Sequence record: OP744025
Reading direction: 5' to 3' (one strand)
Source of the DNA: Escherichia phage A5-4
Length of the DNA stretch: 64,000 bases
Shown here: positions 2,206 to 55,880 of the stretch, in pieces
Layout of the letters: every line of letters begins with the position of its first letter
How positions within the stretch are numbered: position 1 is the first letter of the stretch
Program-made: the position numbers and the translations under genes
Notes under the pieces: generated by a model
The model's database searches: none
What the model saw: the letters and a program-made list of their open reading frames with translations, nothing else
Told to the model about the DNA's origin: nothing

Positions 2206-3381
2206 TCAAAACGGAATATCGTCGTCAAAATCCATATCATCTACAGACATATTCACATGGCCTTCGATATCAGGTGTAGGTGAATCTTCTGCTGACGGAG
2301 TTAACTGCGGTTCCGGCTCAGGTTTCTTTTCTTCTTTCTTAGGAGTTGAAGCACCGTTACGGATCTTATCTTCCAGTTGACAGATGAATCGGAAATTCTC
2401 TTCAGTCTTAGCAATAAACGTTTCAATGTTATTACTTCCCCAACGGGCAGAAAGAATACCACACTGGCCTAAACGAGCACCAAAAGAATAATCATCCATA
2501 GATTTAAACTCTTCGCGAAGTTTTGCTTTAATGGAGTCCATCGCTGCAAGAACTTGCTCTACAACAATACCCTGATTTGCGATCGTTTCATTCGGGAACA
2601 TTGCATCTGTGATAGACAGTGCATTACCTAAACGAATGGGGAGATCATCCTTACCTTTACCTGAACGAGAACCTGTTCCGGTGTTTGCACCTTTTGGACC
2701 ATATGCTTTAAAGCCAGTTACAGTACCATCTTCTGCACGAACACCTGCAATACGACCACCTTCTGAAATCTGACCTGCTTGTTCATCAGTAAGATTTACA
2801 GTAACTTCTGTGCCATCTTCCAGCTTAACAACTACCTTATTGCCTTCGATAGATGTGATATCACCATAAATCTTCTTAGCTGCACCACCAGACGGCTTTT
2901 GCTGCTGTTGGGAACCACTTGATTGCTGCTGTTGCTGACGAGGCTCACGAGCACCGGATGCGTCAGTAATTTTGATACGTGCTTTCTTACCTTCTGTAGA
3001 AGAACCTTGACTACCATCTTCTTTGGTATAGGTCTTGATAACAACAGGTAAACGAATTTTCATACCCTCTTTAAGATCAGTGTAACCACCTTCAGGATTT
3101 TTAATCTGGAACTGATTCTCATACTTCAGGTTTTTAACTTCACCCTCACCAAAAGAAATCCATGCTTGATCTTCACCTTCTTTAAGAAGAACCGCATAGC
3201 GGTGGGTATTGTTAATGCTTTTCTGCTGACCAGTATTCTTGTCTTTGAAGGTAGTCACTCGTGGGCTACCATCTCCATTAATACGTTTGATCATGATACG
3301 TTCAATCGTACCTGCTGCGATGTTTACTGTGGTATCGGAAACAGCATCGTATACAGCATTGATAACTTTAACTTCAGACAT
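2206..3381 (-). CDS. putative single-stranded DNA-binding protein
   Basis: 391 aa. C-terminus DDMDFDDDIPF is an SSB-type acidic tail; Gln/Ser-rich flexible linker (EPRQQQQQSSGSQQQQ); lies in the replication gene block. Confidence 0.5.
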   Translation of the reverse strand: MSEVKVINAVYDAVSDTTVNIAAGTIERIMIKRINGDGSPRVTTFKDKNTGQQKSINNTHRYAVLLKEGEDQAWISFGEGEVKNLKYENQFQIKNPEGGYTDLKEGMKIRLPVVIKTYTKEDGSQGSSTEGKKARIKITDASGAREPRQQQQQSSGSQQQQKPSGGAAKKIYGDITSIEGNKVVVKLEDGTEVTVNLTDEQAGQISEGGRIAGVRAEDGTVTGFKAYGPKGANTGTGSRSGKGKDDLPIRLGNALSITDAMFPNETIANQGIVVEQVLAAMDSIKAKLREEFKSMDDYSFGARLGQCGILSARWGSNNIETFIAKTEENFRFICQLEDKIRNGASTPKKEEKKPEPEPQLTPSAEDSPTPDIEGHVNMSVDDMDFDDDIPF

Positions 3382-5101: not shown

Positions 5102-5502
5102 CATTGTTTTATAGTTCCCTTTGCAATCAATTCGTCAACCTCATCCTCTGCACGACACATAATCTGATAAATAGTCTCCGGATTGTTTAAGAATTCCGTA
5201 TACTTCTTGATACGGCATACTAAACGTGAACGAACTTGCCGCTCCCGAGTAACATGACGAAAATAATGACCTTTCTGACGATAAACCCAAGCATAGTATA
5301 CAGTCTTTGCTCGATTGCGATCTGAACCTAAACGCTCAGCCAACAGAGTGTAAGGGTCATTATTAGTGGGACCAAACAAAAATATTTCTGCAAAACTTTC
5401 TTTAACGATACGAGATTCTTCATCCGTGATTCGCGGACATTCTTCAGAACCGTAGCGTGGTGTTTTAGTGGCATTTGGCTTCTTAGGGTATACTTTACGC
5501 AT
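5101..5502 (-). CDS. hypothetical protein, possible HTH regulator
   Basis: 133 aa basic protein; segment TLLAERLGSDRNRAKTVYYAW looks like a helix-turn-helix. Speculative. Confidence 0.45.
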   Translation of the reverse strand: MRKVYPKKPNATKTPRYGSEECPRITDEESRIVKESFAEIFLFGPTNNDPYTLLAERLGSDRNRAKTVYYAWVYRQKGHYFRHVTRERQVRSRLVCRIKKYTEFLNNPETIYQIMCRAEDEVDELIAKGTIKQ

Positions 5503-10625: not shown

Positions 10626-11047
10626 ACTCCATAATCTATCTTAACAAGCTTCCCTTTGTAGTATCCAAAGTTTTTAGGAAATGCGTCGTACTCGAAGAAA
10701 TCTCGGTCAAGGGTTCTATCTTTATCGTTATCAACCTCATCATAAAGTTTTTGTAGATCAGCTGTAAATAATCCCTTATTCTCTACTGGTTTAGCCTTGT
10801 GCATCACAACCATAAGTCCGAATCTGTTTGAGTAAGCTATTGGGCATAGATGCGGGTTATTATACCCTTTCCACTGACCCTCCGTCATATTGCTGAGCAT
10901 TCCCTGAACAAACGCCTTCCATGAATTAAATCTTGGGAACTTAATCGCATACTTGTTTGTGATTATGACAATTCTCGTCCCACCACTCCTGTTTATCTGC
11001 ATCTTAATATCTCCAGACCTCGTTACTTGTTTCGATGAGGGCATCAT
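10622..11047 (-). CDS. hypothetical protein, possible small kinase-like fold
   Basis: 141 aa; Gly-rich loop RSGGTRIVIITNKYAIKF and KIDYG near C-terminus faintly resemble kinase subdomains. Speculative. Confidence 0.45.
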   Translation of the reverse strand: MMPSSKQVTRSGDIKMQINRSGGTRIVIITNKYAIKFPRFNSWKAFVQGMLSNMTEGQWKGYNNPHLCPIAYSNRFGLMVVMHKAKPVENKGLFTADLQKLYDEVDNDKDRTLDRDFFEYDAFPKNFGYYKGKLVKIDYGV

Positions 11048-14696: not shown

Positions 14697-14972
14697 TCAG
14701 TCTTCTATTACCTCAAATTCACCACTAAAAGCTACGATAGTTTCACCGTAGCCCATGTTCAATCGGGCAGTTGTAGGTTTGCCATTCCTAGATAGATAGT
14801 ACACCCTCGCTTCGTAAATGTCACCAACTTTTACACCGTAAGCCTGTAGGTCTTTGTTATTGATATCTTTATTTTCAGCATTGATTATTCGAACACTGCT
14901 GATCTCTGAGTATACAGAATTATCTTTCATCAGTATTTTTCCTCTGGACGGAAAACTCCACGGCAAGCCCAC
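14697..14972 (-). CDS. hypothetical protein
   Basis: 91 aa ORF in block. Confidence 0.45.
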   Translation of the reverse strand: MGLPWSFPSRGKILMKDNSVYSEISSVRIINAENKDINNKDLQAYGVKVGDIYEARVYYLSRNGKPTTARLNMGYGETIVAFSGEFEVIED

Positions 14973-15214
14973 ATACTTGCTTCTTTGAGGCGATCTTTAG
15001 CCTTAGATAAGCAATCAGATGCAAAAAGCACGGAATCTAGATCCCCTTCGGGAATCGAAGAGTCATTAGCCAGTCGATTATATTCCTCAATAATCTCGTC
15101 TTCTAATGCTTTTAAAATAAGACCTAAACGAATTTCAGCATCTTTAATGGCATTCACCTTACCGATTTTTTCATCGGTGTGTGGTTTGTAGCCCTTAATG
15201 TCATCAATAGCCAT
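14930..15214 (-). CDS. hypothetical protein
   Basis: 94 aa ORF; start may be internal. Confidence 0.45.
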   Translation of the reverse strand: MAIDDIKGYKPHTDEKIGKVNAIKDAEIRLGLILKALEDEIIEEYNRLANDSSIPEGDLDSVLFASDCLSKAKDRLKEASMWACRGVFRPEEKY

Positions 15215-44281: not shown

Positions 44282-44362
44282 AAAGTATTGACAGAAAGAA
44301 AGAAGTAAATTAAATTATACCACGTAACGCCGCAATCGTGCGGCAATAAAAACTGATAGGAA

Positions 44363-44584
44363 TTGAACAAAATGGCTAAAATCATCATTAAAAAATCCCG
44401 TGTATCTTCTGTTGCTCGCGTCGAAATGGTAAACACTATGCCAGGTTACCGGACTCGCGAGGAAGCCCGAAGCGTTGCAAAACAGATTAAAGCCCGTGGC
44501 TTAACTGTAAGTGCACCGACCAAAACACAAGAAGGATGGAAGGTATCTATTAAATCCGGTACACTGTCAATCAATAAACACTAA
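44363..44584 (+). CDS. hypothetical small basic protein
   Basis: 73 aa; promoter (TTGACA at 44287) and stem-loop upstream. Confidence 0.5.
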   Translation: MNKMAKIIIKKSRVSSVARVEMVNTMPGYRTREEARSVAKQIKARGLTVSAPTKTQEGWKVSIKSGTLSINKH

Positions 44585-44801
44585 TAGCCAAAACATTAAC
44601 GGGGCAACTTTGCCCTCATTAAATAACATTATCCAGGAGTATTAACATGACTAGCCAAAACACTAACATTGAAAAAATCAACATTACTAAAGAGCGTAAA
44701 GCATGGAATGAAACATTAAATCTCAAAGGTAAGAAGCTGAATAAAACTAAACGCGATCGCAGTACAAAGCGGGCCTTTTGTGAATTTACAGCGGATCAAG
44801 A

Positions 44802-45101
44802 GTGATGATTAAAGTTATTGCACTTACTGCTTTATTGTGTATACCATTTTTGGCGCACGGTACTAAGTTTTACGGTGCTAACTTGATAGATTGTAAAGCT
44901 CATATGCTGGACCATGAAACAGGCAACAAATTTCTTAAGCCTTTCCAGATCAATCCGGCGGCATTTAGTGACGGTGTTTTGTATCAGGAAGGTAAAGCCA
45001 GTACGCTGATAATGCATTACGATCCGGCAACAAAGAAAGGTAGTCTATCAATCCAGGTTGGAGAGGTGGAAGAGTTTTCCGGTGAAATAGTCTGTAATTA
45101 A
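44802..45101 (+). CDS. hypothetical secreted protein
   Basis: 99 aa; N-terminal signal-peptide-like MMIKVIALTALLCIPFLAHG. Confidence 0.5.
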   Translation: MMIKVIALTALLCIPFLAHGTKFYGANLIDCKAHMLDHETGNKFLKPFQINPAAFSDGVLYQEGKASTLIMHYDPATKKGSLSIQVGEVEEFSGEIVCN

Positions 45102-45109
45102 TATCTTGA

Positions 45110-45136
45110 GGCCCGTCATTGTACGGGCCTTTTTCT
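45110..45136 (+). terminator. rho-independent terminator
   Basis: Hairpin ggcccg-tcattgta-cgggcc followed by ttttt. Confidence 0.6.
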
Positions 45137-45290
45137 TTTATGAAAATAATTTTGAAAATGTTGTTGACAGTAAAATCGATTCTGTTAAGATGTATCACAT
45201 CAGGACGGGGAACGAAGTAAACACTCCCCGTTAAGTAGTCCAGGAGTAAGACATACGAAAAACTCCCCTGATAAAAAGATTTAAAAGTGG

Positions 45291-45318
45291 TTGACACAAA
45301 ATTAAAAACTGTTAAGAT
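45291..45318 (+). promoter_or_regulatory. promoter plus stem-loop cassette
   Basis: TTGACA (45291-45296), 16-nt spacer, TAAGAT (45313-45318); GC hairpin ggcggcaatagtgccgcc at 45330-45347; then RBS and ATG 45368. Confidence 0.6.
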
Positions 45319-45367
45319 GTATCACATACGGCGGCAATAGTGCCGCCTCCAACAAAGAGAAATTATC

Positions 45368-45619
45368 ATGGCTAACAAAACTAAAACCACTAAAACTTAT
45401 AACGGTCACAAAAACAAAAATCATTGGAACGTTTCTCTATGGCTTAACAATGATTCATCACTTTACCAGCTGGCGAAAGAATTTATTAACGCTAACACTA
45501 ATCGTAATGATGCGGCGCGGGATATGATGATTTTTCTGGAACAAACTGGACAATATAAAACTCCAGACGGTTTCAAGTACAGCACTACGGCGATCCGTGC
45601 TGCAATGGTTGGAATGTAA
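45368..45619 (+). CDS. hypothetical protein (paralog of 47186..47425)
   Basis: 83 aa; shares HKNKxHWNVSLW...TPDGFKYSTTAIRAAMVGM with 47186..47425. Confidence 0.6.
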   Translation: MANKTKTTKTYNGHKNKNHWNVSLWLNNDSSLYQLAKEFINANTNRNDAARDMMIFLEQTGQYKTPDGFKYSTTAIRAAMVGM

Positions 45620-45675
45620 TATTCAATACTGTAACAATGGCGGGATTAGTTCCCGCCTTTGCGGAGAAATATCTA

Positions 45676-45963
45676 ATGAGCAAAGTAATTGACTGTAAAG
45701 TGTTAACCAAATCATTGTCAATCAGTGAGTGCACCAATGGTTATTGGCTTTATGATGAAACACGCGGCATGAATCTGGCTATGGAAGCTAAAACGGCTGA
45801 GGCGGCGTATGTGCAAGCCCTGGAATACTACCAGAGACGTTTAAAGGAAGTAGAAAACAATTATCAGAATCTCAAAGAGAAAGTAGATCATTTCGTTGGT
45901 CAATTCGTTGACGATGACGAGGAAGACGGGCACTACTGCAACCGCTGCGGATCTTACAGTTAA
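45676..45963 (+). CDS. hypothetical protein
   Basis: Track ORF 45637..45963 trimmed to ATG 45676 (MSKVIDCK...) because the first 13 codons lie in the upstream stem-loop; CNRCG near C-terminus. Confidence 0.45.
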   Translation: MSKVIDCKVLTKSLSISECTNGYWLYDETRGMNLAMEAKTAEAAYVQALEYYQRRLKEVENNYQNLKEKVDHFVGQFVDDDEEDGHYCNRCGSYS

Positions 45964-46049
45964 GTACTTGCAATTAGTTTTAAGTACTGTATAATGTTTT
46001 ACATCGAGAGCGGGAATAGTTCCCGCCTCACATCAAAGAGATTAAAATT

Positions 46050-46277
46050 ATGGCTATCCTTATTGTTCGTGTATCCGGTACAGTTGGTAACTCCCAGGTT
46101 GTAGCAGTTGTAACAAGCAAAAAGATTAATGAATCTTCTAAAATCTTGAACGAATGGGCCGTTGCTAACTTTGGTCAATGGTCGAGCGTCGAGTATCTCG
46201 AATCTTACCAGGTGCCAACTATTAGCCTAACCGATCTCAATGTTGATCGCCTGTTATGCCTGGATGAATTGATTTAA
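46050..46277 (+). CDS. hypothetical small protein
   Basis: 75 aa; stem-loop gcgggaatagttcccgc upstream. Confidence 0.5.
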   Translation: MAILIVRVSGTVGNSQVVAVVTSKKINESSKILNEWAVANFGQWSSVEYLESYQVPTISLTDLNVDRLLCLDELI

Positions 46278-46361
46278 AAAGTAGTTGCAAAGTAAAACGA
46301 ATAAAGTATAATACATTACATCAGGGGGAGAAATGATTCTCCCCACTAAAAGGAAACTAAA

Positions 46362-46505
46362 ATGAAAACTTGTCAGTGTGGTAAAAAGTCTATTGCTGGT
46401 CTGCGTCGCGGTGTTGCTTTATGCCAGTATCATTACAATAGTCAAGTATGGGGTAAAACGTGGGCTGACCAGGTTGAAGCAGCAAAGAAAGCAAAAAGTA
46501 ATTGA
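46362..46505 (+). CDS. small Cys-rich protein (47 aa), not in ORF track
   Basis: ATG 46362 follows the stem-loop ggggagaaatgattctcccc; translation MKTCQCGKKSIAGLRRGVALCQYHYNSQVWGKTWADQVEAAKKAKSN; replaces the unlikely minus-strand ORF 46390..46707. Confidence 0.4.
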   Translation: MKTCQCGKKSIAGLRRGVALCQYHYNSQVWGKTWADQVEAAKKAKSN

Positions 46506-46529
46506 CAGCAAGAAGAAAAAGAGTAAACT
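46502..46529 (+). promoter_or_regulatory. promoter plus stem-loop cassette
   Basis: TTGACA (46502-46507), 16-nt spacer, TAAACT (46524-46529); hairpin ggcggcaatagcgccgcc at 46541-46558. Confidence 0.55.
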
Positions 46530-46582
46530 GTATTACGTAGGGCGGCAATAGCGCCGCCACATCAAAGATAGAGAGAATCAAA

Positions 46583-46801
46583 ATGGCCAATATCCGCACT
46601 GTACTGAAAAATGCAAAACAAGTTTTATTTTCTGACGATGAATATTTTAATCGCAATATCAAAGGCGTTCGGAACATTGAGGATGTAAAGGAATTATTTG
46701 GAATCAAAGGTAACGTATATCGTAAAGGATTGCACGGTAATAATTTTGAATATAAGTTGGCTGATAGTGATTATAATTTTACACTGACCACCATTAGTTG
46801 A
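46583..46801 (+). CDS. hypothetical small protein
   Basis: 72 aa ORF after the cassette. Confidence 0.5.
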   Translation: MANIRTVLKNAKQVLFSDDEYFNRNIKGVRNIEDVKELFGIKGNVYRKGLHGNNFEYKLADSDYNFTLTTIS

Positions 46802-46881
46802 AAGTTTTAATCTAGCGCTATTGACTTAAGCCGATAGTGCTGGCATAATAACTTTTATCAAGAACATCAAAGGAAAGTAAA

Positions 46882-47094
46882 ATGGCTATCATTACTAAAA
46901 TCAAAGTAAACAAAACACTGGTTAAGCTGGAAGAAGTGAAAGCAGGTTATAAAGTATCTTGGTGTGGCATGTATCGGATGTTCACAGATATAGACGATGC
47001 AATCAATTACTACACTAACACGATTAAAAACTTTGTTCGTGCTGATGTGATTATTGCAGTGGAAGCACATAAAGCATCGAAAGAAAGTAAGTAA
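46882..47094 (+). CDS. hypothetical small protein
   Basis: 70 aa ORF; promoter-like TTGACT upstream. Confidence 0.5.
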   Translation: MAIITKIKVNKTLVKLEEVKAGYKVSWCGMYRMFTDIDDAINYYTNTIKNFVRADVIIAVEAHKASKESK

Positions 47095-47185
47095 AATTAT
47101 TACCACAGTACTATTGACAACTGCTGATAGTACTGACATAATAACTTTTATCAAGTAGTACAAATCAAAAAGAGAGAATATCATC

Positions 47186-47425
47186 ATGGCTAAATCTAAA
47201 ACTTTCAACGATCACAAAAACAAAACTCATTGGAATGTTTCCTTGTGGATTAATAATGGTGAAGCACTGTATCGGCTTGCTCAAAATTGCATTGCACAAA
47301 GTAAAACTAAAGATATTGCTGCGGAATGTATGTACCGCAGATTAAAAGCGAACGGCACTACAACAACGCCGGACGGATTTAAGTATAGCACCACTGCGAT
47401 CCGTGCCGCGATGGTTGGAATGTAA
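47186..47425 (+). CDS. hypothetical protein (paralog of 45368..45619)
   Basis: 79 aa; see 45368..45619. Confidence 0.6.
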   Translation: MAKSKTFNDHKNKTHWNVSLWINNGEALYRLAQNCIAQSKTKDIAAECMYRRLKANGTTTTPDGFKYSTTAIRAAMVGM

Positions 47426-47444
47426 AAAGAAAAAGTAAAAGTAG

Positions 47445-47473
47445 TTGACACAAAGAAACAAAACAAGTAAATT
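47445..47473 (+). promoter_or_regulatory. promoter plus stem-loop cassette (near-identical copy at 49565)
   Basis: TTGACA (47445-47450), 17-nt spacer, TAAATT (47468-47473); hairpin gcgggg-aatgg-ccccgc at 47485-47501. Confidence 0.6.
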
Positions 47474-47523
47474 AATCACATCAGGCGGGGAATGGCCCCG
47501 CTAAAAGAGAAGAGAGAAATCAA

Positions 47524-47856
47524 ATGAGCTTTTTATCTATCGTGCAGACTAACTTTGAAAATGATTTTATTGCTCAAGCTATCAACATTGACAAAGGTAT
47601 CCCAAATATCAATTTTGGTTTTAATAGTGGTGGTTATGAGAGATACCAGTATTTTGTAACTGACGATGGAAGTGTTTTAGGTATCAATACGGTGATGGCT
47701 AATATCCAAAACATTAATTTCAATGATCCCGATGAGCGCTCATTCTATATCGTCGGTGTCCAGGTGAACTACAATGATGACTCTTTAATCGATGATTACA
47801 CTGGCGAGACGTTAGAGAGTGCTTACGGTGACGAATCAGAAGAAGAAGAAGAATAA
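47524..47856 (+). CDS. hypothetical acidic protein
   Basis: 110 aa; C-terminus DESEEEEE. Confidence 0.5.
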   Translation: MSFLSIVQTNFENDFIAQAINIDKGIPNINFGFNSGGYERYQYFVTDDGSVLGINTVMANIQNINFNDPDERSFYIVGVQVNYNDDSLIDDYTGETLESAYGDESEEEEE

Positions 47857-47956
47857 GATTAAAAAAGTAGTTGACTGAAAGACTACAAAGAAGTAAGATA
47901 ATTAACGAATAGGGGGAAACATCTTCCCCCATAAACAAAAGAAAGAGAGATTAAAA

Positions 47957-48139
47957 ATGACAGAACTGATTGCAACTACAAAGATCGAAGGCGTTAACGA
48001 TGTTACTTTGTCCTATGATCCTTCTACTCTGGTTTATGTTGTGAAATATGGCAGAATGATCGCAGAACTTGATTGCATTGATGAGGCTTTCGAAAAATAT
48101 TTCGAACTTATCAATATTGCTTATGATGACTACCGTTAA
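47957..48139 (+). CDS. hypothetical small protein
   Basis: 60 aa; promoter TTGACT and hairpin gggggaaacatcttccccc upstream. Confidence 0.45.
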   Translation: MTELIATTKIEGVNDVTLSYDPSTLVYVVKYGRMIAELDCIDEAFEKYFELINIAYDDYR

Positions 48140-48169
48140 TATACAACGCAAAAATAGAAAGGTGATAAA

Positions 48170-48379
48170 ATGATCAATGAAAAAACAATCAATGACGTTC
48201 GAGAGGAAGTTTTAGCCGTTGCCGTAGAATCTGGCGCACGTCAGGCATTTTGGAAAGCTACTGATCTTTACCCTGAGCAAGCCGAAAATATTCTCAATCA
48301 GGTCAGCGTTAAACTTGAACAAATGGGAAAACTGAAAACAAGTGAGCGCCTCGACCAAATCATTAAAGAAAGTTTTTGA
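48170..48379 (+). CDS. hypothetical small protein
   Basis: 69 aa; AAAGGTGA RBS. Confidence 0.5.
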   Translation: MINEKTINDVREEVLAVAVESGARQAFWKATDLYPEQAENILNQVSVKLEQMGKLKTSERLDQIIKESF

Positions 48380-48443
48380 TTGACTTTTAACATTGCCCCT
48401 ATTAGTATTCAGGGGCAAGATTAAAAGAAACAAGGACACGAAG

Positions 48444-48755
48444 ATGAATGATATTGTTAGCATCATAGGTTTACTCGGCATAGGTTACATCGCCACATCA
48501 ATTACAATGAGTTACTTCAATAAAAGGCGTGATAAAATGTTTTGTTACTTTGAGTATCGTTACCGTGGTAAGGTTGGATCATCCCGTGACTATGGTCCGA
48601 TGTTAGAGATTGATGCGGTTGGCGCTATGCAGTATCGCCAGTCACTAGGGGCTGAAATAATTTTTGAAGTGTACCGCAGTACAGAAGAAGAGATCCACGA
48701 CATTATTGATGAGCGTCAATATTATCACGAACAACAAACTAAACGCAGGGCTTAA
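48444..48755 (+). CDS. hypothetical membrane-anchored protein
   Basis: Track ORF 48393..48755 trimmed to ATG 48444 (MNDIVSIIGLLGIGYIATS...) because the upstream codons overlap a promoter (TTGACT 48380, TAGTAT). Confidence 0.5.
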   Translation: MNDIVSIIGLLGIGYIATSITMSYFNKRRDKMFCYFEYRYRGKVGSSRDYGPMLEIDAVGAMQYRQSLGAEIIFEVYRSTEEEIHDIIDERQYYHEQQTKRRA

Positions 48756-48903
48756 GATATGACTAATACAAACCGACAAAAAATCATCAAAACTAAAAAG
48801 CTTGATTTCAATACTTATCAAGAATGCAAGAAGAAAGTAAAAGATAAGCGAGAGAACAAGCGGCATGAATGGATCACTAATACAATCGATCTTTAACAAT
48901 CAA

Positions 48904-48930
48904 GGCCCGCTATGATGTGGGCCTTTCTTT
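48904..48930 (+). terminator. rho-independent terminator
   Basis: Hairpin ggccc...gggcc followed by tttcttt. Confidence 0.5.
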
Positions 48931-48943
48931 ATGGAGAACAGAC

Positions 48944-49171
48944 ATGATTAATATTCTTTCACTTACAGAAGTGATCCGCTTCCTCAAAAACAACGCCCTG
49001 GGAACGTCTATAGCGTATCTAATCCCTCAAGGTAAAGATTATGCCAGCGTTACACGTTCAATCACTGCTACGGCCTCCAGAGAAGAAATAAAGGTCAGTG
49101 TAAGCCAATTGCTCATCGTTGATCCTTCCTCCTGTGAAACAACCCAGGCTGTAAAGATAATTAGAAAATAA
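48944..49171 (+). CDS. hypothetical small protein
   Basis: Track ORF 48917..49171 trimmed to ATG 48944 (MINILSLTEV...) with GGAGA RBS; the earlier ATG lies inside the terminator hairpin. Confidence 0.45.
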   Translation: MINILSLTEVIRFLKNNALGTSIAYLIPQGKDYASVTRSITATASREEIKVSVSQLLIVDPSSCETTQAVKIIRK

Positions 49172-49256
49172 TTTAAAAAACTTCTTGCATCCATTATCGA
49201 GAAGATGTACATTAGTTTCATCAAGACGAGATGAAGATAACCCAAAGGTGATTACT

Positions 49257-49550
49257 ATGTTATACGAAGTTTTTGCAGGTTTCTGTTTTTATGGTGCTGC
49301 CGCCGTTCGCCAGTGTGATGACTATGTAGTTGAGTCATTCGATGATCCTTTGGCGTGTGAGATTGTTACTACAACTTATGAGCAAGATCGCCGTTGGATT
49401 AATCCGGCCTGTATTGCATCGCCTGAGGTTGAAGCTATGCCGGAAGGTGAGGAATTGACAGAAGAAGACTTGCAAGAAGTAAAAGAAGTTATGAGTTACA
49501 TGATTGATAATCTGGACGCTGAAAACTTGCAACGTGCCTTACAAAAATAA
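49257..49550 (+). CDS. hypothetical acidic protein
   Basis: Track ORF 49185..49550 trimmed to ATG 49257 (MLYEVFAGF...) with AAAGGTG RBS; upstream codons overlap a promoter. Confidence 0.45.
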   Translation: MLYEVFAGFCFYGAAAVRQCDDYVVESFDDPLACEIVTTTYEQDRRWINPACIASPEVEAMPEGEELTEEDLQEVKEVMSYMIDNLDAENLQRALQK

Positions 49551-49564
49551 TTTTAAAAAAGTAG

Positions 49565-49593
49565 TTGACTCGAAGAAACAAAACAAGTAAATT
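49565..49593 (+). promoter_or_regulatory. promoter plus stem-loop cassette (near-identical copy of 47445)
   Basis: TTGACT (49565-49570), 17-nt spacer, TAAATT (49588-49593); hairpin gcgggg-aatgg-ccccgc at about 49605-49621. Confidence 0.6.
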
Positions 49594-49637
49594 AATCACA
49601 TGAGGCGGGGAATGGCCCCGCTGAACAAAAAGAGATT

Positions 49638-50018
49638 ATGAAAATGGCTAAAAATACTAACGTTTGTGATTACGCTGATCTGGTTACTCTGAATGCAGAT
49701 TCTAAAATCAACCTGTCAAACGTGGAAGCGGTGCACGTCCTGGCCCGCCGCTGGTTCCAAAAGTTATATGGTAATACTTATTTCTCTTTAAGTGTGGATG
49801 TGGAGATCGCTGGTAAATTGGTAGAAGTAGTTAACGTCCCGTTTAAATATGGTTATGGTGATCATTTCGATACCGTGGCACTGGAAGAATTTAGCAAGGT
49901 TATCAACATGGAAGGAAAAGAGTTTTCAGAGTATAGTTACCTTTCCCGTTTTTGCCGTGACAATAACATCCCTGTTTATTCGAACGCTGTTGATGTTAAA
50001 CGCAAAAAAGATATGTAA
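49638..50018 (+). CDS. hypothetical protein
   Basis: 126 aa ORF downstream of the cassette. Confidence 0.5.
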   Translation: MKMAKNTNVCDYADLVTLNADSKINLSNVEAVHVLARRWFQKLYGNTYFSLSVDVEIAGKLVEVVNVPFKYGYGDHFDTVALEEFSKVINMEGKEFSEYSYLSRFCRDNNIPVYSNAVDVKRKKDM

Positions 50019-50105
50019 TTATTATTGACAGTACATAGAAAACAAGTAAACTGTATTACATAGAAAGCGGGAACACTTCCCGCTTATATTTCAGGAATAA
50101 GAGAA

Positions 50106-50357
50106 ATGATCGAACAAATCAAAACTACGACGGCTAACGTAACGGGTACAATATCGCACTTTATTAGTGATGAATCGCGGGGCGTTCCTTATTGTGCAGT
50201 ACATGTAAACAAAAATGGCGACTACTGGTTAACGGCGTATGGATCTTATTCTTTCGGACGTAGTGCACACCAAAAGATCCTGGATAAAGTACAACCAACG
50301 GGTAAAAATATTACCGCTGAGATGTTTAATAAATCACTTGCAAAGTTAAAAGCGTAA
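50106..50357 (+). CDS. hypothetical small protein
   Basis: 83 aa; cassette with hairpin gcgggaacacttcccgc upstream. Confidence 0.5.
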   Translation: MIEQIKTTTANVTGTISHFISDESRGVPYCAVHVNKNGDYWLTAYGSYSFGRSAHQKILDKVQPTGKNITAEMFNKSLAKLKA

Positions 50358-50418
50358 AGTATAATACATCACATCAGGCGGGGAGTGTTTCCCCGCCACA
50401 AAATGAAAGGCCAACAAA

Positions 50419-50598
50419 ATGAAATCAAGCATGATGGTAGCGACTGTAAACATTATCATTGGTAACGGAACTGGACACCACGAAATCATAAAAAACAAGG
50501 CTTACTCTATTAGCTCCCTCAAAAACGACATGCGTTTATCTTTGGGCCAAATCCGCGCTTACTTTCGTGAAGGCTATCAGAAAAAAGTAGCAAATTAA
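50419..50598 (+). CDS. small protein (59 aa), not in ORF track
   Basis: ATG 50419 follows hairpin ggcggggagtgtttccccgcc; translation MKSSMMVATVNIIIGNGTGHHEIIKNKAYSISSLKNDMRLSLGQIRAYFREGYQKKVAN. Confidence 0.45.
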   Translation: MKSSMMVATVNIIIGNGTGHHEIIKNKAYSISSLKNDMRLSLGQIRAYFREGYQKKVAN

Positions 50599-50658
50599 TA
50601 GTTGACGCAAAGGTCATTTTAATTTAATCTATAACAAATCGACAAATGAGGCATAATC

Positions 50659-50961
50659 ATGTTTACCAAAGCAAATGAGTATTTCTTTTTAGATTTACTT
50701 GATGAAAGTATCTTTGTAGCTATGGGCAAAAAGTCAATGGTCTTTAAACGCAAAAAAGATAATGGTGACTTTGAAGATAGCGAAGCCGTGCTAACAGTCA
50801 AGGAAGGTAGAGATCCTGCTACGTCTGTTTTAATCTACACCTTGACCAACGGCGGTGAAGTTATCGCATCAGGTAGTAGCCATCCGATCCCAAAATCGGA
50901 AGTGAACACTGTAATTATTGGTTTTGTTGTAGCTTGTTTCTACGAGGAAAAAAGCAAATGA
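50659..50961 (+). CDS. hypothetical protein
   Basis: 100 aa; promoter TTGACG at about 50600 upstream. Confidence 0.5.
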   Translation: MFTKANEYFFLDLLDESIFVAMGKKSMVFKRKKDNGDFEDSEAVLTVKEGRDPATSVLIYTLTNGGEVIASGSSHPIPKSEVNTVIIGFVVACFYEEKSK

Positions 50962-51122
50962 ATCCGCAAAATTTATCTTATGTAAACTGGCCCAATAAGG
51001 CTGAGAAGAAAGAAAACTTGAAACGTCTGGTTAACTTTTATCGTGAAGCTGGTCATAGTAAAGTAACAGCGGTTAAAATGGCAAAGCGCCACCTTAACAA
51101 GCCAAGTACTAAACTAATTTAA
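50958..51122 (+). CDS. hypothetical small basic protein
   Basis: Track ORF 50934..51122 trimmed to ATG 50958 (MNPQNLSYV...), ATGA-coupled to the upstream gene, GAGGAA RBS. Confidence 0.45.
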   Translation: MNPQNLSYVNWPNKAEKKENLKRLVNFYREAGHSKVTAVKMAKRHLNKPSTKLI

Positions 51123-51193
51123 AAACTTGTTGACGTTGGCTTGTGCCGTACCTATAATGGACGGCATAGGCAAACGAAATAGGATTTATAGAA

Positions 51194-51400
51194 ATGAAAA
51201 AGAAAATTGTATATAATATTATTAGCTTTATCGCAACTATCCTCCTGGCTATTGCTGGTCTATCTTTGATTGTTGCAGTAGGATCTCTGTTTCCTGGGGC
51301 AATAAGTATTAGCATAGCTTTCGCCGCATTGTCTGTTTTTACAGGGTATGCAGGGATTAAAGTTACTTATTGGTCAGAAGATTACAAATATTCAAACTGA
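51194..51400 (+). CDS. hypothetical small membrane protein
   Basis: 68 aa, two hydrophobic segments; promoter TTGACG-N17-TATAAT upstream. Confidence 0.5.
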   Translation: MKKKIVYNIISFIATILLAIAGLSLIVAVGSLFPGAISISIAFAALSVFTGYAGIKVTYWSEDYKYSN

Positions 51401-51413
51401 ATTGAGGTGTAAG

Positions 51414-51563
51414 ATGTACAAGCTATTAACCTGGGAAACAGAATCATCGTCACCGATCAGCCGGACCTTTTTTGATTTGTGCACGGCTTACAGGCTGGCA
51501 AAGGGAGGGTATCATAAGGCCCAAATCATTGATGAATTTAATGTTATCCTTTATGAATTTTAA
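51414..51563 (+). CDS. hypothetical small protein
   Basis: Track ORF 51348..51563 trimmed to ATG 51414 (MYKLLTWE...) with GAGGTG RBS. Confidence 0.4.
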   Translation: MYKLLTWETESSSPISRTFFDLCTAYRLAKGGYHKAQIIDEFNVILYEF

Positions 51564-51790
51564 TCAATTCATATACTTAAAAGAAAGTTAGAAAAAGTTT
51601 TAAAAAGTGGTTGCAACAGGTATTGGATAGTAGTATAGTACTTTCAACGGGGCGAGATGGCCCAAAACGAAAAAACTTGAAAGGTGATTATCATGATGGC
51701 AATTTTCTTAATTTCTCTTCTGGTCGCTGTATGTTCTGCCACTGCTGCCGCTGTACTTTATGACACCCGCTACAATGAGGAATAATAAAA

Positions 51791-52009
51791 ATGAATATTG
51801 TCAACATTACAGGTAAGACCGAGATCCTTAAGAATCTTGCGCCAGGTGAGTCCACCGTATGGATCTGCAAAGATGGCGAAGTAGAAAAACAAATGAGATT
51901 GTTTACCGCTATTTGTTGTCGGTTAAATATGAAAGTTACACAAATCCGATCGATGATTGTTAGTGTGGGAAACATTCCGACTGAATGCATAATTCTTACA
52001 AAGATTTAA
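51791..52009 (+). CDS. hypothetical small protein
   Basis: 72 aa; GAGGAA RBS. Confidence 0.45.
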   Translation: MNIVNITGKTEILKNLAPGESTVWICKDGEVEKQMRLFTAICCRLNMKVTQIRSMIVSVGNIPTECIILTKI

Positions 52010-52085
52010 AAATAGCTTTACAACAACGATAAAATCAGTACAATACAAATCAGGCAATAAAGCCAACTAAAGAAAGGTAAAGACC

Positions 52086-52325
52086 ATGCAAACTATTATC
52101 ACTAAATTTCTTCCTCCTACGAATACCCGTGGCGCTCGCATCAAAGCAAAATGTTGGTTGACAGATATCACTATCGCCTATCCGGTAGCCGAGATCAACG
52201 AAGCCCATAAACTGGCGGCAGAAGTGTTAATTACAAAATTGAAGATGACAACAGATATTGATTGGAAAATTGTTGCAAGTGGTGAAACACCGGACGGATC
52301 AGGTTATGCATTTATCATCAAATAA
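52086..52325 (+). CDS. hypothetical small protein
   Basis: 79 aa ORF. Confidence 0.5.
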   Translation: MQTIITKFLPPTNTRGARIKAKCWLTDITIAYPVAEINEAHKLAAEVLITKLKMTTDIDWKIVASGETPDGSGYAFIIK

Positions 52326-52328
52326 TTG

Positions 52329-52357
52329 TTGACAACAGCAAAGTAAGCGCGTAGTAT
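52329..52357 (+). promoter_or_regulatory. promoter plus stem-loop cassette
   Basis: TTGACA (52329-52334), 17-nt spacer, TAGTAT (52352-52357); hairpin ggggcgacaagcgcccc follows. Confidence 0.55.
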
Positions 52358-52393
52358 TCATTTTACAGGGGCGACAAGCGCCCCGCTTATCAG

Positions 52394-52675
52394 ATGAGAC
52401 AAATCATGAAAATATCATTGGACGTTGCAATCAAGGCCATCGAATCCGGTTACACTCTGGTTAAGGACGATAAGGCTAAAATCGTGCATCACGTTAACAA
52501 GGAAACAGGCGAAAGCATGATCACATATAAAGCCGCCTACTTTCTCCAATCAGTAGCAGATCCGCGCCTGCAACGCCAGGTTACGGCGGCTATCGCTAAA
52601 AAATTATGTGCTTTACAGGGTACAAGTTTTAACGAGATCGCCCCGTGTTTTGATTGGTCAAGCTTGAAAAAATAG
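52394..52675 (+). CDS. hypothetical protein
   Basis: 93 aa ORF; alternative start ATG 52406. Confidence 0.5.
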   Translation: MRQIMKISLDVAIKAIESGYTLVKDDKAKIVHHVNKETGESMITYKAAYFLQSVADPRLQRQVTAAIAKKLCALQGTSFNEIAPCFDWSSLKK

Positions 52676-53090
52676 TTTGACAATACGCAGTTATCTGGTA
52701 AAGTGTACTACATAGCGCGGAAATACTTCCCGCCATTAATGAGGATAATTTAATGAAAACTTTCAACGCAACAGCCTCGACAATTGGTTATATTATTACA
52801 GTGCAAGCCGTAGATCTGGTAGCAGCAGCAAACAAGATTAAAAGAATGATCCCGCTAGGTAGTGAATTTTCCGTTTGGGAAGTAAAATAATTCTTGACAA
52901 TAGTTTGTTACTTGATAGAATGTATTTCGTAGGGCGGGGCAATGGAGCAACGCCCATTAATGAGGCTAGCATCATGTTAGAGAAAATTTTCACGGTTGCA
53001 GTGGTTGGCCTGGCGTTATCGGTTGGAGTGGTTGCAACTATGGCTAATATGATCCTATCTTCCCACGGTATCGGTTAAGAGAGACACATC

Positions 53091-53477
53091 ATGAAAACAG
53101 AAATCATTATTGAAATCATCAACGGTTACAAAGAGGCTTTTATCTTTGCTGAATCAGCCAGGAATCACGAAGGTGATTTTATAGATGACATGACTGATTA
53201 TGATTTTTCAGATCAAGCCCAGCAACGGATCATTCGTGACGTGGCGGCTTTTTGTGACGCCAATGATGCCGCTATCTCTGAGGCAATGAGCGACGGCGCA
53301 ACAGCCAACCAGATCGGGAATGATTTACATTTTACCCGTAACGGTCACAGCGTAGGCTTTTGGGATCGCCCTGAGATATACACTACTAACACGGCTAACC
53401 GTTTGACCAATGCCGCTAAATTTATGCCAAACGTGTCAGCCTACATTGGGAAAGATAATCTGATTTATATTGAATAA
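53091..53477 (+). CDS. hypothetical acidic protein
   Basis: 128 aa ORF. Confidence 0.5.
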   Translation: MKTEIIIEIINGYKEAFIFAESARNHEGDFIDDMTDYDFSDQAQQRIIRDVAAFCDANDAAISEAMSDGATANQIGNDLHFTRNGHSVGFWDRPEIYTTNTANRLTNAAKFMPNVSAYIGKDNLIYIE

Positions 53478-53483
53478 AAAGTA

Positions 53484-53511
53484 TTGACAAGCTGAATCAA
53501 CCTGACAAGAT
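53484..53511 (+). promoter_or_regulatory. promoter plus stem-loop cassette
   Basis: TTGACA (53484-53489), 16-nt spacer, CAAGAT (53506-53511); hairpin ggggcgataaacgcccc at 53522-53538. Confidence 0.55.
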
Positions 53512-53558
53512 GTATCACATAGGGGCGATAAACGCCCCATAACAGAAAGGGTAATCTT

Positions 53559-53753
53559 ATGACGTTAGCAACATGTACCGGATCAAAAATTGCTTGCTTT
53601 GAGTTTATGGAAGACTACCACACGACCGCAATCACTGACCAATATATTACAGTGATCACGCGTGACGGTATCGCCTGGCATGTTCCGGTTTATGATGGGG
53701 ATACCTATGAAGTCACCGACAGCGACGGCAATACAGCTATCTTTGTTGTCTAA
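53559..53753 (+). CDS. hypothetical small protein
   Basis: 64 aa ORF. Confidence 0.45.
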   Translation: MTLATCTGSKIACFEFMEDYHTTAITDQYITVITRDGIAWHVPVYDGDTYEVTDSDGNTAIFVV

Positions 53754-53765
53754 GGGGGAAACACT

Positions 53766-53993
53766 ATGCACAATAACATCATTACCGATCGTGCCGCCAC
53801 TATGCGCCCTGGCGATCGGGCACGTTTACAGGTTGGCGCTTATCCGTTCCCTACTTATGACTTTTGCAAGGTGACGGCAGTCGAAAACAATCCCTTTGAT
53901 CCTGATACCGTGATCATCTGGTACGAAGGAAGGGGAAATAAGTATGAAGATGTTTTATGGCGGGATGAGCATATCAACATTATTCGTTACTAA
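53766..53993 (+). CDS. hypothetical small protein
   Basis: 75 aa ORF. Confidence 0.45.
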   Translation: MHNNIITDRAATMRPGDRARLQVGAYPFPTYDFCKVTAVENNPFDPDTVIIWYEGRGNKYEDVLWRDEHINIIRY

Positions 53994-54111
53994 TCGCCAC
54001 CTAACAGCCTAAATAGTAGGAGGTAATGCAATCCCCTACTCAATGAGAATGGAGCGCCCTGGCTTATGCTGGGGCGTTTTATGTTGTATGGAAATAATTT
54101 AGAAAATAAGC

Positions 54112-54140
54112 TTGACGCCGGGAATGTTAGCGCGTATAGT
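54112..54140 (+). promoter_or_regulatory. promoter plus stem-loop cassette
   Basis: TTGACG (54112-54117), 17-nt spacer, TATAGT (54135-54140); hairpin gcggcaatagtgccgc at 54153-54168. Confidence 0.6.
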
Positions 54141-54188
54141 TTATCACATAGGGCGGCAATAGTGCCGCTCATAATTGGAGTAGAGATC

Positions 54189-54362
54189 ATGGCAATTCTG
54201 GCGAAAGATGTAAAAGTAGGTATGACCTTTAATGATTGTGAAGTTGTCTATGTTGCCGCGCACGGCGACGGTATCATTACCATTGAAACAGAACACTTTG
54301 ATCGAGATTGTGGCGAGATGGAATATTTTTCTTGCGAGTATCATGAAAACGATGAGTTTTAA
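54189..54362 (+). CDS. hypothetical small protein
   Basis: Track ORF 54066..54362 trimmed to ATG 54189 (MAILAKDVKVG...) because the upstream codons overlap the promoter cassette. Confidence 0.45.
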   Translation: MAILAKDVKVGMTFNDCEVVYVAAHGDGIITIETEHFDRDCGEMEYFSCEYHENDEF

Positions 54363-54442
54363 ACTATTGACACTGTAAGTAATTGTGTTAATATTTTTGT
54401 GTAGGGCGGCAATGTTGCCGCTCACTGACTGGAGCTATCACC

Positions 54443-54844
54443 ATGACCTTTACAATCACCTCTTACACTGACGTTGCCAGCATTGCTAAAACTTTCGGCC
54501 CTGAAGCCCTTAAATATGCGGTATCCAATGGTAATCTGACAAAAGAGGAATGTTATCTGATTGGAAGCTGTAAACGTTGGGCGGTATCTCGTAACATCGA
54601 GATTGAAAACGTAAATGATGGCAACATCGAATATAGCGTTGATGCAGTATTCCAAGTTGTTGATTTAGGTGGTATCTATAATACCAATCTTAATGATGTG
54701 CGTATCGTTCGCACTGGCTTTGGGGCTTATGATGTTCCAGTTCGTGAAGCTATGGAAAAAGGTTATATTAATCCAGCCATTTTAAGCATGATCATGACTG
54801 AGGCCAAACAACGTAACGAGATACGGGCTATCCTGGGCCTGTAA
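54443..54844 (+). CDS. hypothetical protein
   Basis: 133 aa; cassette with hairpin ggcggcaatgttgccgc upstream. Confidence 0.5.
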   Translation: MTFTITSYTDVASIAKTFGPEALKYAVSNGNLTKEECYLIGSCKRWAVSRNIEIENVNDGNIEYSVDAVFQVVDLGGIYNTNLNDVRIVRTGFGAYDVPVREAMEKGYINPAILSMIMTEAKQRNEIRAILGL

Positions 54845-54943
54845 TGAAATATTAATGGAAAACTATTGACACGGATCGTCAATATGCTAATATTTATCAC
54901 GTAGGGCGGCAACGCCCCAGATTAATAAAAATAGGAAATAAAT

Positions 54944-55150
54944 ATGACTACTTCAATGATCAGATCTTCCGACATTAAAAAGGCTTTATCTGCATTGCGT
55001 TATCATCATAGAATGAAAGTAATCAACGATGAGAGCTATCTAGATTCATCGTTAGAAAGCGATACGTTGGAAGCCATTTCAAAATTATCTGATTTGCATA
55101 AACGCATGACCGAAAGCAACCGATCCGACTTCATAGGGGGCGAAATATGA
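54944..55150 (+). CDS. hypothetical small protein
   Basis: 68 aa ORF. Confidence 0.45.
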   Translation: MTTSMIRSSDIKKALSALRYHHRMKVINDESYLDSSLESDTLEAISKLSDLHKRMTESNRSDFIGGEI

Positions 55151-55407
55151 GCATTGCAATGTTAATCAATACCGTAGAAGAGGCGAAAGCATTAAAGTTA
55201 CGTGTTGAACTGATTGATCAGCCAGGTGGAGATCTCCTTGTACAAATCTATCCCCCAAAGGATGATTCTGGCGCTTATGATTGGTGCTACTCTGACACGT
55301 TCGAACAAGTAGACATTAAAGCAATAACATCATTTATCAATAGGGCTATACTTGAGCAAACGATAGAACTTAACGGGATGTTAAAAACACCCTGGCACAT
55401 TTACTGA
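55147..55407 (+). CDS. hypothetical small protein
   Basis: 86 aa; ATGA-coupled to the upstream gene; terminator follows. Confidence 0.5.
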   Translation: MSIAMLINTVEEAKALKLRVELIDQPGGDLLVQIYPPKDDSGAYDWCYSDTFEQVDIKAITSFINRAILEQTIELNGMLKTPWHIY

Positions 55408-55418
55408 GTTCGACAAAA

Positions 55419-55446
55419 GGGCTTGACTTGTTCAGCCCTTTTTTGC
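55419..55446 (+). terminator. rho-independent terminator
   Basis: Hairpin gggcttgacttgttcagccc followed by ttttttg. Confidence 0.6.
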
Positions 55447-55619
55447 TATTCTTATCAAACGGGCGGCACCTGGGAACAGGGGGGAGGTAATCACTGGACG
55501 ACTCCGCTATATAGTGATAGTAAATAGCTATCAATAATCTCCAAAAATAAAATAAAACCTATCGAGTCTTTACAATTCTTTCTATTGACACAACAACCGC
55601 ATTACAGTATTATTTATCT

Positions 55620-55880
55620 CGTAGGGCAGCGAAGCAGTGATGTAAAGTAGTTACTCTATGATGTAAGTTCTGAGAAGTCGAATCCGATAAAGTATCAGAA
55701 AGTTTCTAAGTTTTCGAATCGTCCAGATGAAAAAGGCTGGCAAGTGTTGAGAAAGGGCACGTTGAGTAAGTCCTGAACAGGGGCGCTCCTAGACACCTTC
55801 TACTGAGATTGCGATCGAAGTGTTAAACTGTGAGAAACGATAAAGAGTACCAGGAAAGAAAGAAGTAAAAGAAGTGAAAA
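55620..55880 (+). ncRNA. candidate promoter-driven non-coding transcript
   Basis: Promoter TTGACA (55585-55590) + TATTAT (55608-55613) is followed by about 260 nt with no ORF longer than a few codons, up to the next promoter (TTGACA 55886). Every other cassette in the array sits directly in front of an ORF. Confidence 0.25.

Follow-up and report, generated by a model that had tools for sequence, protein, structure and literature searches.

The DNA analysed here, referred to throughout as the window, is a stretch of 64,000 nucleotides (nt) from Escherichia phage A5-4 (sequence record OP744025). Its identity to Escherichia phage A7_1 (OP795442), a 145-kb rV5-like myovirus, is 98.6-99.2%, and it falls in the Septuagintavirus clade of the Vequintavirinae (for the context of this group see PMC11370258). 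The replication module occupies the - strand between 3 and 33 kb, and the + strand between 43.7 and 57.5 kb carries an array of ~42 small open reading frames (ORFs), whose only family matches are to PHROG or DUF groups without a known function. The genes of this array are interspersed with short cassettes that combine a predicted promoter, in many cases a hairpin, and a ribosome site, and comparison with related phages suggests that the repeated blocks of these cassettes have probably served as exchange points for whole small genes. A first-pass annotation of the window had already raised this idea from two near-identical cassettes of ~65 nt, hereafter the focal cassettes, and from a pair of related small genes that it took for paralogs.

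Along the array, 31 sites on the + strand between 44288 and 57155 fit the pattern TTGACA-N16-18-TAnnnT. Every one of them lies upstream of a small ORF, and most are preceded by an A-rich tract of the AAAAGT type; promoter-like sites number 76, against 41.7 +/- 7.4 in shuffled sequences. About 20 of the 31 promoters are followed by a G-rich/C-rich hairpin, which begins 8-14 nt past the -10 element, lacks a T-run and has a folding energy of approximately -8 to -18 kcal/mol. The 3' part of the cassette then supplies a purine-rich ribosome site and the ATG of the small ORF. When promoters were picked by their hexamers alone and a fixed zone 6-35 nt downstream of the -10 was folded, 49% of the array promoters reached -9 kcal/mol or lower, as against 4.5% of the other promoter-like sites of the window and 2.5% of random 30-mers (Mann-Whitney p = 9e-7 for array versus control). 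Strong GC hairpins number 33 in the 64 kb, and the 21 that fall within 44-58 kb almost all present the G-rich arm first, followed by an A-rich tail (TAAAAGAG, ACATCAAA and similar) in place of the T-tract by which intrinsic terminators are recognized. True intrinsic terminators with T-runs are found in this region only at 45108, 48902 and 57132. Hairpin-bearing promoters are limited to 44-57 kb, and those of the replication module are devoid of hairpins. A scan of the 64-kb window against Rfam returned no match at the gathering score and only weak terminator-like hits near 45100, and a tRNA scan found nothing. Cassette-type hairpins are also seen between genes without a recognisable promoter, at 45620-45675 and 44585-44646 in the window and at ~13620 and ~10700 in the sequences L003 and L005, respectively. 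In some relatives the same gene retains its hairpin while its promoter differs or is absent (gene 54443 has four promoter parts), suggesting that the hairpin tends to travel with the downstream gene. The features discussed below are collected in Table 1.

Table 1. Positions of the cassettes, genes and signals of the small-gene array (window coordinates unless another sequence is named)
Feature	Position	Strand	Remarks
Whole array	44282..57234	+	~42 small ORFs, ~31 sigma-70-type promoters, ~20 promoter-proximal G-rich/C-rich hairpins
Focal cassette 1	47426..47523	+	intergenic, between DUF7249 gene A2 and the ORF of 110 amino acids (aa)
Focal cassette 1, promoter	A-rich tract 47437-47444; -35 47445-47450; -10 47468-47473	+	TTGACA, 17-nt spacer, TAAATT
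Focal cassette 1, downstream part	start ~A47480; hairpin 47484-47502	+	start predicted; perfect part of hairpin 47485-47501
Focal cassette 1, end	ATG at 47524	+	preceded by purine-rich ribosome site
Focal cassette 2	49551..49637	+	precedes 126-aa ORF, ATG at 49638
Focal cassette 2, promoter	-35 49565-49570; -10 49588-49593	+	TTGACT; TAAATT
Focal cassette 2, hairpin	49604-49622	+	perfect part 49605-49621
Seven small ORFs between the focal cassettes	47524..49550	+	order kept in every examined relative that spans them
Inter-focal ORFs 1-4	47524..47856, 47957..48139, 48170..48379, 48444..48755	+	
Inter-focal ORFs 5-7	48759..48896, 48945..49171, 49258..49550	+	
Internal cassette and internal promoter	47871 and 49185		within inter-focal block 47524..49550
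DUF7249 gene A1	45368..45619	+	type I allele, 83 aa
Gene B1	45676..45963	+	phrog_19040, ~95 aa, partner of A1
DUF7249 gene A2	47186..47425	+	type II allele, 79 aa, mosaic
Promoter-hairpin cassette before A1	45283..45367	+	TTGACA-16-TAAGAT, hairpin GGCGGCAATAGTGCCGCC; left boundary of 698-nt indel
Promoter-hairpin cassette before gene 46050..46277	45964..46049	+	right boundary of 698-nt indel
Hairpin-less promoter repeat, left copy	46801..46876	+	flanks gene 46882..47094
Hairpin-less promoter repeat, right copy	47094..47169	+	flanks gene 46882..47094
Microhomology of the W70 deletion	50341-50353 and 56981-56993; W70 (L002) 10980-10992		
Canonical intrinsic terminator	45108..45131	+	hairpin and T-run
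Canonical intrinsic terminator	48902..48925	+	in inter-focal block

The near-identity of the focal cassettes noted by the first-pass annotation is borne out: 47437-47501 and 49557-49621 agree at 62 of 65 bases (3 mismatches; exact common runs of 29, 20 and 13 nt), and the similarity continues at 87% over 90 nt (47437-47526 versus 49557-49646). Both repeats are closed by the hairpin GCGGGGAATGGCCCCGC (47485-47501 and 49605-49621), which has a loop of 5 nt, a stem of 6 bp, or 7 bp if the outer G.T is counted, and a predicted RNA folding energy of -13.4 to -15.6 kcal/mol (z ~-2.3). When the 31 promoter units are compared in all 465 pairs, this pair is an outlier at 91.5% identity, the runner-up reaching 76% and the median standing at 55%; the focal cassettes are the most similar two of a family of ~31 expression cassettes. 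Both copies were found in five of five sequenced relatives, each with position-specific differences, and an assembly artefact was rejected as the source of a pair seen in this way at both sites in six independent genomes. The 2.1-kb block between them is colinear in every examined relative that spans it. A search of a phage collection restricted the focal cassette to the five known relatives, with two copies apiece, exact-pattern scans of IMG/VR and the JGI metagenomes gave no match for it, and exact-protein look-ups brought up four further Logan contigs, all with unchanged order across the focal block. The focal pair is hence old and stable, and no recombinant form of it was seen in the relatives examined.

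The array around it is far more mobile. Chained alignments with seven relatives (W70, A73, UPEC06, LTH01 and three Logan contigs) uncovered, rather than a fixed gene order, 13 insertions, deletions or replacements within 14 kb, in genomes otherwise 91-97% identical over most aligned blocks and ~80% identical in a few. Intergenic sequence holds 16 of the 25 distinct breakpoints (binomial p = 2e-4 for these alone), another 7 are no more than 10 nt from a gene end, and the remaining 2 fall inside genes; the start of one gene was taken as 54189 for this count. Most junctions show 9-71 nt of overlapping alignment, meaning that the two parental ends share sequence. Gene 46882..47094, which lies between two copies of a hairpin-less promoter repeat, illustrates the pattern. 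It is missing from A73, UPEC06 and LTH01, and the single cassette remaining there is a chimera, of the left type up to CATAATAACTTTTATCAAG and of the right type beyond it, with the crossover in a 19-nt block common to both copies; a crossover in CATAATAACTTTTATCAAG would account for the absence of the gene, through either loss or gain. Crossovers fall within hairpins in a 220-nt deletion of A73, in a 270-nt insertion of LTH01 and in a 284-nt deletion of LTH01 that runs between two terminator hairpins, and at the ribosome site/ATG in a 576-nt deletion of SRR25909051. W70 and A73 lack a further segment of 698 nt (45277-45974), which comprises one cassette together with genes A1 and B1; its junction falls in the upstream-tract/-35 part of the cassettes. 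Thus, the proposal of cassette-mediated shuffling finds support in breakpoints at cassettes and gene edges, in the overlaps and in the chimeric cassette. One limit on it is that the inter-focal block is unrearranged in all relatives examined. As a separate observation, between about 48600 and 49650 the window differs from A7_1 by 6-15 mismatches per 150 nt. At 49050-49350 it is nearer to A73 than to A7_1, which argues that the source phage is probably a recombinant, or mosaic, of A7_1-like and A73-like sequence over ~48.6-49.65 kb; the exact 126-aa protein encoded at 49638 turned up on record only in A73.

The cassettes are not confined to the close relatives of A5-4. PBECO4, a 348-kb Asteriusvirus, and TSP7_1, a Phapecoctavirus of the Stephanstirmvirinae, display the same cassette layout as the window and have several of the array genes, 72-93% identical in nucleotide sequence and differently ordered. 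Single cassettes match at 84-97% over 40-68 nt, and similarity at the level of the cassette extends to 144 phage records. As a control, the DNA polymerase region matched mainly Vequintavirinae of many host genera; the matches listed include neither an Asteriusvirus nor a Phapecoctavirus. For the 126-aa protein of the array, identity is 75-80% with proteins of unrelated E. coli phages but just 25-30% with those of Vequintavirinae that infect other hosts. Taken together, the polymerase control and these identities indicate that the array genes track the host, E. coli, and not the phage lineage. Elsewhere in the window, a stretch of 62 nt (14929-14990), in the part of a small - strand ORF (gene 14899..15132) that encodes the C terminus, is 90% identical to the T4-like phages slur11, FriedrichMiescher and G8; in two of the listed records, slur11 and G8, the match adjoins a regB-type endoribonuclease gene.

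The two genes described as paralogs in the first-pass annotation, A1 and A2, are certainly homologous. Their products are 59% identical (45/76 residues; BLASTP E = 4e-32), both score above the cut-off of 27 for Pfam DUF7249 (PF23907), at 51.5 and 43.8 bits, and both match phrog_871; a PDB sequence search with the DUF7249 protein returned nothing meaningful. Local duplication, however, does not describe their relationship, which is one of allelic types. The A2 protein is 90% identical to one of the PBECO4 copies; in all other relatives this position is held by a type I allele. The nucleotide sequence of A2 is mosaic: its ends and flanks follow the A73 orthologue, and its central ~130 nt (~47273-47416) are of the PBECO4 type (gene 2951..3190 of that phage). 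A recent in-place duplication was rejected because A2 is nearer to the PBECO4 allele than to A1. The A+B pair is also present at the second position in W70 and in the jumbo phage PBECO4; a recent transfer of A1 and B1 from a sequenced donor was likewise rejected, as the best match outside the clade is 81%. A1 and A2 are two alleles that were probably brought together by exchange.

The hairpins were surveyed in 67 unique cassettes from the window, the seven relatives, PBECO4 and TSP7_1, by loop-anchored counts and by comparison of orthologous cassettes. Several stem families emerged, among them GGCGGCA/TGCCGCC, GCGGGAA/TTCCCGC, GGGGAGAA/TTCTCCCC, GGGGCG/CGCCCC and GCGGGG/CCCCGC, and each stem position is occupied by 2-5 types of pair. 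Orthologous cassettes show the compensated change AAGCGGGAA/TTCCCGCTT to AGGCGGGAA/TTCCCGCCT, an A-T pair turned into G-C at 50025, and G.T pairs turned into A-T or G-C at 47445 and 49565. At 47871 a matched A-T pair has been lost. A small number of stem changes are disruptive. In the cassette at 45964..46049 the whole stem has been swapped among relatives with the pairing kept (GCGGGAA/TTCCCGC, GCGGCA/TGCCGC or GGGGAGAA/TTCTCCCC). The 15 G.T pairs of the set carry the G in the 5' arm every time, implying that the wobble is tolerated only on the RNA of the + strand. The top of the hairpin is conserved and AT-rich, 41 of 50 cores beginning with AA and often reading AAT(A/G)G. Hence, the cassette hairpin appears to be selected as a structure on the + strand, and would act in RNA.

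Units of comparable design are known from the T4-like phages RB49/phi1, PST and nt-1 as promoter-early stem-loops (PeSLs), for which the idea of cassette-driven shuffling has already been published (Arbiol et al. 2010, PMC2839356; Comeau et al. 2014, PMC4122927). The features characteristic of PeSLs recur here: 1) An AT-rich, specifically A-rich, tract with a strong promoter of the sigma-70 type, whose activity in our case is predicted. 2) A stem-loop with a G-tract and a C-tract. 3) A ribosome site and ATG before small ORFs of unknown function. 4) Clustering of the units in a variable (hyperplastic) region. 5) Indels of close relatives that are bounded by cassettes and leave chimeric junction cassettes. 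The resemblance is visible in the sequences themselves, RB49 having AAAAAGTTGTTGACA ... GGAGAATCAAAATG and the window AAAAGTAGTTGACA ... GAGAGAATCAAAATG, and there is no similarity at the BLAST level to the compared 30-kb region of RB49 that contains its PeSL-rich variable region. Two differences stand out. Firstly, the phages concerned belong to the Vequintavirinae, Stephanstirmvirinae and Asteriusvirus, and are not T4-like. Secondly, the window hairpin follows the -10 and the predicted start, and would thus be part of the cassette's own mRNA, whereas the RB49 stem-loop lies mostly within the -35/-10 spacer and is transcribed only by read-through from upstream. A looser parallel is offered by the morons and linker sequences of modular phage evolution (Hendrix; Susskind and Botstein; discussed in PMC2839356), in which single genes move together with the signals for their expression and exchange takes place at short conserved stretches between genes. 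Morons, however, have a terminator of their own, and their signals are not considered the means by which they move; in the array the repeated signals would themselves be the crossover sites.

What the hairpin does bears on how the cassettes are to be understood. One proposal is that the stem-loops are terminators or attenuators that insulate genes from read-through, as has been suggested, and in part tested, for T4-type PeSLs, an arrangement under which shuffling could still take place. One PeSL stem-loop of RB49/phi1 cut lacZ expression about as much as the terminator rrnB T1 (PMC2839356), such a site is labelled 'terminator' in one related phage record, and the GC-rich hairpins of 5-9 bp between genes do resemble intrinsic terminators. 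Yet the cassette hairpins are without a T-run on either strand, unlike the true terminators of the region, and stand between a promoter and its own gene, where an efficient terminator would be expected to abort the transcript of that very gene; the RB49 stem-loop, in contrast, lies outside its cassette's own transcript. We accordingly consider a strong terminator role unlikely and the insulation model as a whole rather improbable. RNase III sites were rejected because the stems are too short, as were hairpin promoters of the N4 type for a virion RNA polymerase, the hairpins being downstream of good sigma-70 promoters; transcription depends on host-type promoters according to the rV5 paper. The reading that we prefer, at somewhat less than even odds, is that the hairpin forms a 5' stem-loop that would stabilize or tune a short mRNA. 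Work from the Belasco laboratory reportedly established 5'-terminal stem-loops of this kind, typified by the 5' untranslated region of ompA, as stabilizers of E. coli mRNAs. The cassettes resemble these in having a stable hairpin close to where their short mRNA is predicted to begin, which leaves the ribosome site downstream uncovered. They differ in their overhang: if transcription starts 7 nt past the -10, as is usual, 4-6 nt are predicted for the window cassettes (up to ~9 nt in PBECO4), which may be too much for the mRNA to be fully protected. Given its conserved top, the hairpin might also be a binding site for a phage factor.

We put a probability of roughly three in four on the following account. 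The cassettes would be expression units whose primary job is the expression of each small gene, each providing an A-rich tract and a strong host sigma-70 promoter in a presumably early small-ORF region, and recombination would probably be a by-product of their repetition. Because the same short blocks, of 13-30 nt, recur every few hundred bases along the array, the recombination machinery of phage and host could cross over between cassettes, be it in the upstream tract with the -35, in the -10 with the start region, in the hairpin or in the ribosome site with the ATG. Whole genes would thereby be deleted, inserted or replaced with their signals intact, leaving chimeric cassettes behind. The common cassette grammar of unrelated large E. 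coli myoviruses would likewise offer homology for exchange between lineages during co-infection, and the two DUF7249 alleles may have been united by such exchanges. A bolder version of this account, which we regard as unlikely, holds that the promoter/5'-hairpin/ribosome-site cassette is a common currency of three or more lineages of large E. coli myoviruses that are unrelated to one another (the Vequintavirinae, the Stephanstirmvirinae and the jumbo Asteriusvirus group) and draw on one host-specific pool of small early genes, and that the hairpin with its AAT(A/G)G-type top is read by a dedicated factor, whether a regulator that binds RNA or a nuclease/recombinase making gene circles, so that the array would work, in virulent phages, as an integron-like means of exchange.

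A number of points weigh against the account of cassettes as expression units that also support shuffling, or narrow its reach. No recombinant of the focal pair was encountered among the relatives examined, and both focal copies hold stably at their own positions. Cassettes, moreover, are not involved in all of the events. W70 lacks 6.6 kb (50354-56993), and the junction is a microhomology of 9-13 nt, CAAAGTTAA, with one end of the deletion in a promoter and the right end inside gene 56695..57114. The allele swap in A2 used conserved coding ends and not cassettes, as is evident from the position of the exchanged patch inside those ends. Furthermore, since recombinants with intact genes alone would survive, some enrichment of intergenic breakpoints is expected even without cassette homology. 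As regards the hairpin, RNAalifold on a structure-blind MAFFT alignment of the 67 cassettes recovered only 4 consensus pairs, 3 of them compensatory, because such an alignment fails to track stems of differing length; its formal support for a conserved stem is weak. Promoter activity, transcription start and hairpin role are predictions for this phage group, and with ~4-6 unpaired nucleotides at the 5' end, protection against 5'-end-dependent decay would be uncertain.

The stability of the focal pair invites the alternative that it is the footprint of a single event, in which a circle bearing a cassette and the seven genes entered a resident cassette by homologous recombination and left a copy of the cassette on either side. 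This would be in keeping with two copies far more alike than any other pair, and such an integration is the reverse of the excision of PeSL mini-circles. The inter-focal genes, unlike their left neighbours, also have no high-identity (megablast) match outside the clade, the more sensitive blastn detecting a PBECO4 homologue of 47524..47856 at 73.6% identity. We nevertheless give this scenario a low probability: no genome without the block was found, all relatives having both copies with position-specific differences, and the TSP7_1 homologue of the 126-aa gene lies upstream of a DUF7249 gene and not beside a single cassette.

More sweeping is the view that the cassettes are only expression signals, alike through constraint on promoter and structure, and that illegitimate recombination strikes anywhere with selection keeping the intergenic events. 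Selection alone does predict breakpoints between genes, and both the W70 deletion, with its short microhomology and its one end inside a gene, and the focal pair, which is unrecombined in every relative examined, suit this view. It fits poorly with the 9-71-nt overlap of two parental cassettes at junctions, with the switch from left type to right type across the 19-nt block at the lost gene 46882..47094, and with several crossovers that map inside a 20-nt hairpin common to two cassettes, none of which are patterns of random end-joining. We thus judge it quite improbable, and consider that homology, rather than selection alone, probably places the junctions.

Very improbable, finally, is the notion that the hairpin is an active recombination site whose DNA is read by a phage enzyme, such as an endonuclease VII-type or homing-type nuclease, for integron-like excision and insertion of gene circles: several crossovers do lie in or beside hairpins, the AT-rich hairpin top is conserved, mini-circles were detected and a hairpin-binding protein suggested for the PeSLs of RB49/phi1, and an endonuclease VII homologue is reported for these phages (PMC11370258), but crossovers are scattered over every conserved cassette block instead of one site, hairpin-less promoter repeats recombine too, at 5-9 bp the stems are short for a cruciform to be extruded, the asymmetry of the G.T wobbles fits RNA or a single + strand and not a duplex site, and no recombinase was identified in a non-exhaustive search. 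As in integrons, structured repeats separate small ORFs that are driven by promoters, and a circular intermediate has also been put forward. The array departs from integrons in its scattered crossovers, as opposed to a single defined point in attC sites, and in repeats that contain promoters, which attC sites do not; no integrase was seen, though no whole-genome search for one was made.

The mechanism favoured here is thus of a known kind, found in additional lineages and with a hairpin that is predicted to be transcribed. PeSL-type shuffling has so far been documented only in T4-like phages, and we found no description in the literature of PeSL-type cassettes for rV5-like, phAPEC8-like or 121Q-like phages. 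Three extensions of the PeSL model are suggested by our results: 1) Its occurrence in other lineages. 2) The tendency of the array genes to follow the host, E. coli. 3) The placement of junctions inside common cassette blocks. Together these supply concrete and testable recombination substrates. Arrays of small early genes are the seat of host-takeover and probably anti-defence functions in virulent phages and turn over rapidly, and the cassettes mark the sites at which gene gain, loss and exchange are to be expected in therapeutic phages of these genera. In practical terms, each cassette is a compact unit of a strong promoter (as predicted), a 5' hairpin and a ribosome site.

Several other features of the region deserve mention. 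W70 carries an HNH_3 gene further downstream of its 6.6-kb deletion. At 57115-57160 the order of the promoter-then-hairpin cassettes is reversed, the terminator GGCCGCAATAGCGGCC with TTTTCT being followed by TTGACA; the terminator hairpin repeats 284 nt downstream (57415-57435), and LTH01 has deleted the gene between the copies. A possible unannotated ORF of 30-33 aa at 51684-51785, encoding the hydrophobic peptide MMAIFLISLLVAVCSATAAAVLYDTRYNEE, lies in a 227-nt gap after the promoter at 51611. The 553 nt at 55408-55960 form an ORF-free gap that close relatives conserve; it is rich in purines, contains the motifs AAGU/GUAAG repeatedly and has promoter-like sites at 55423, 55585 and 55887; its ORF-free transcript region 55620-55885 (266 nt) was rejected as a structured RNA, since it folds no better than shuffles (z = +1.35). 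Lastly, at 45164-45282 a promoter TTGACA-16-TAAGAT precedes ~85 nt without an ORF, and the unit folds into a closing helix with two hairpins (-21.6 kcal/mol, z = -2.4). We regard it as a candidate for a small non-coding RNA family with no match in Rfam. It is 88.6% identical to a likewise ORF-less unit of PBECO4 (L006 2091-2178), and looser variants occur in PBECO4 (~5310-5390), UPEC06 and LTH01, among which the loop UAAGNCNNAMGAAAAM is kept and the closing stem covaries (GGAG/CUCC, CCAG/CUGG, CAACUUG/CAAGUG).

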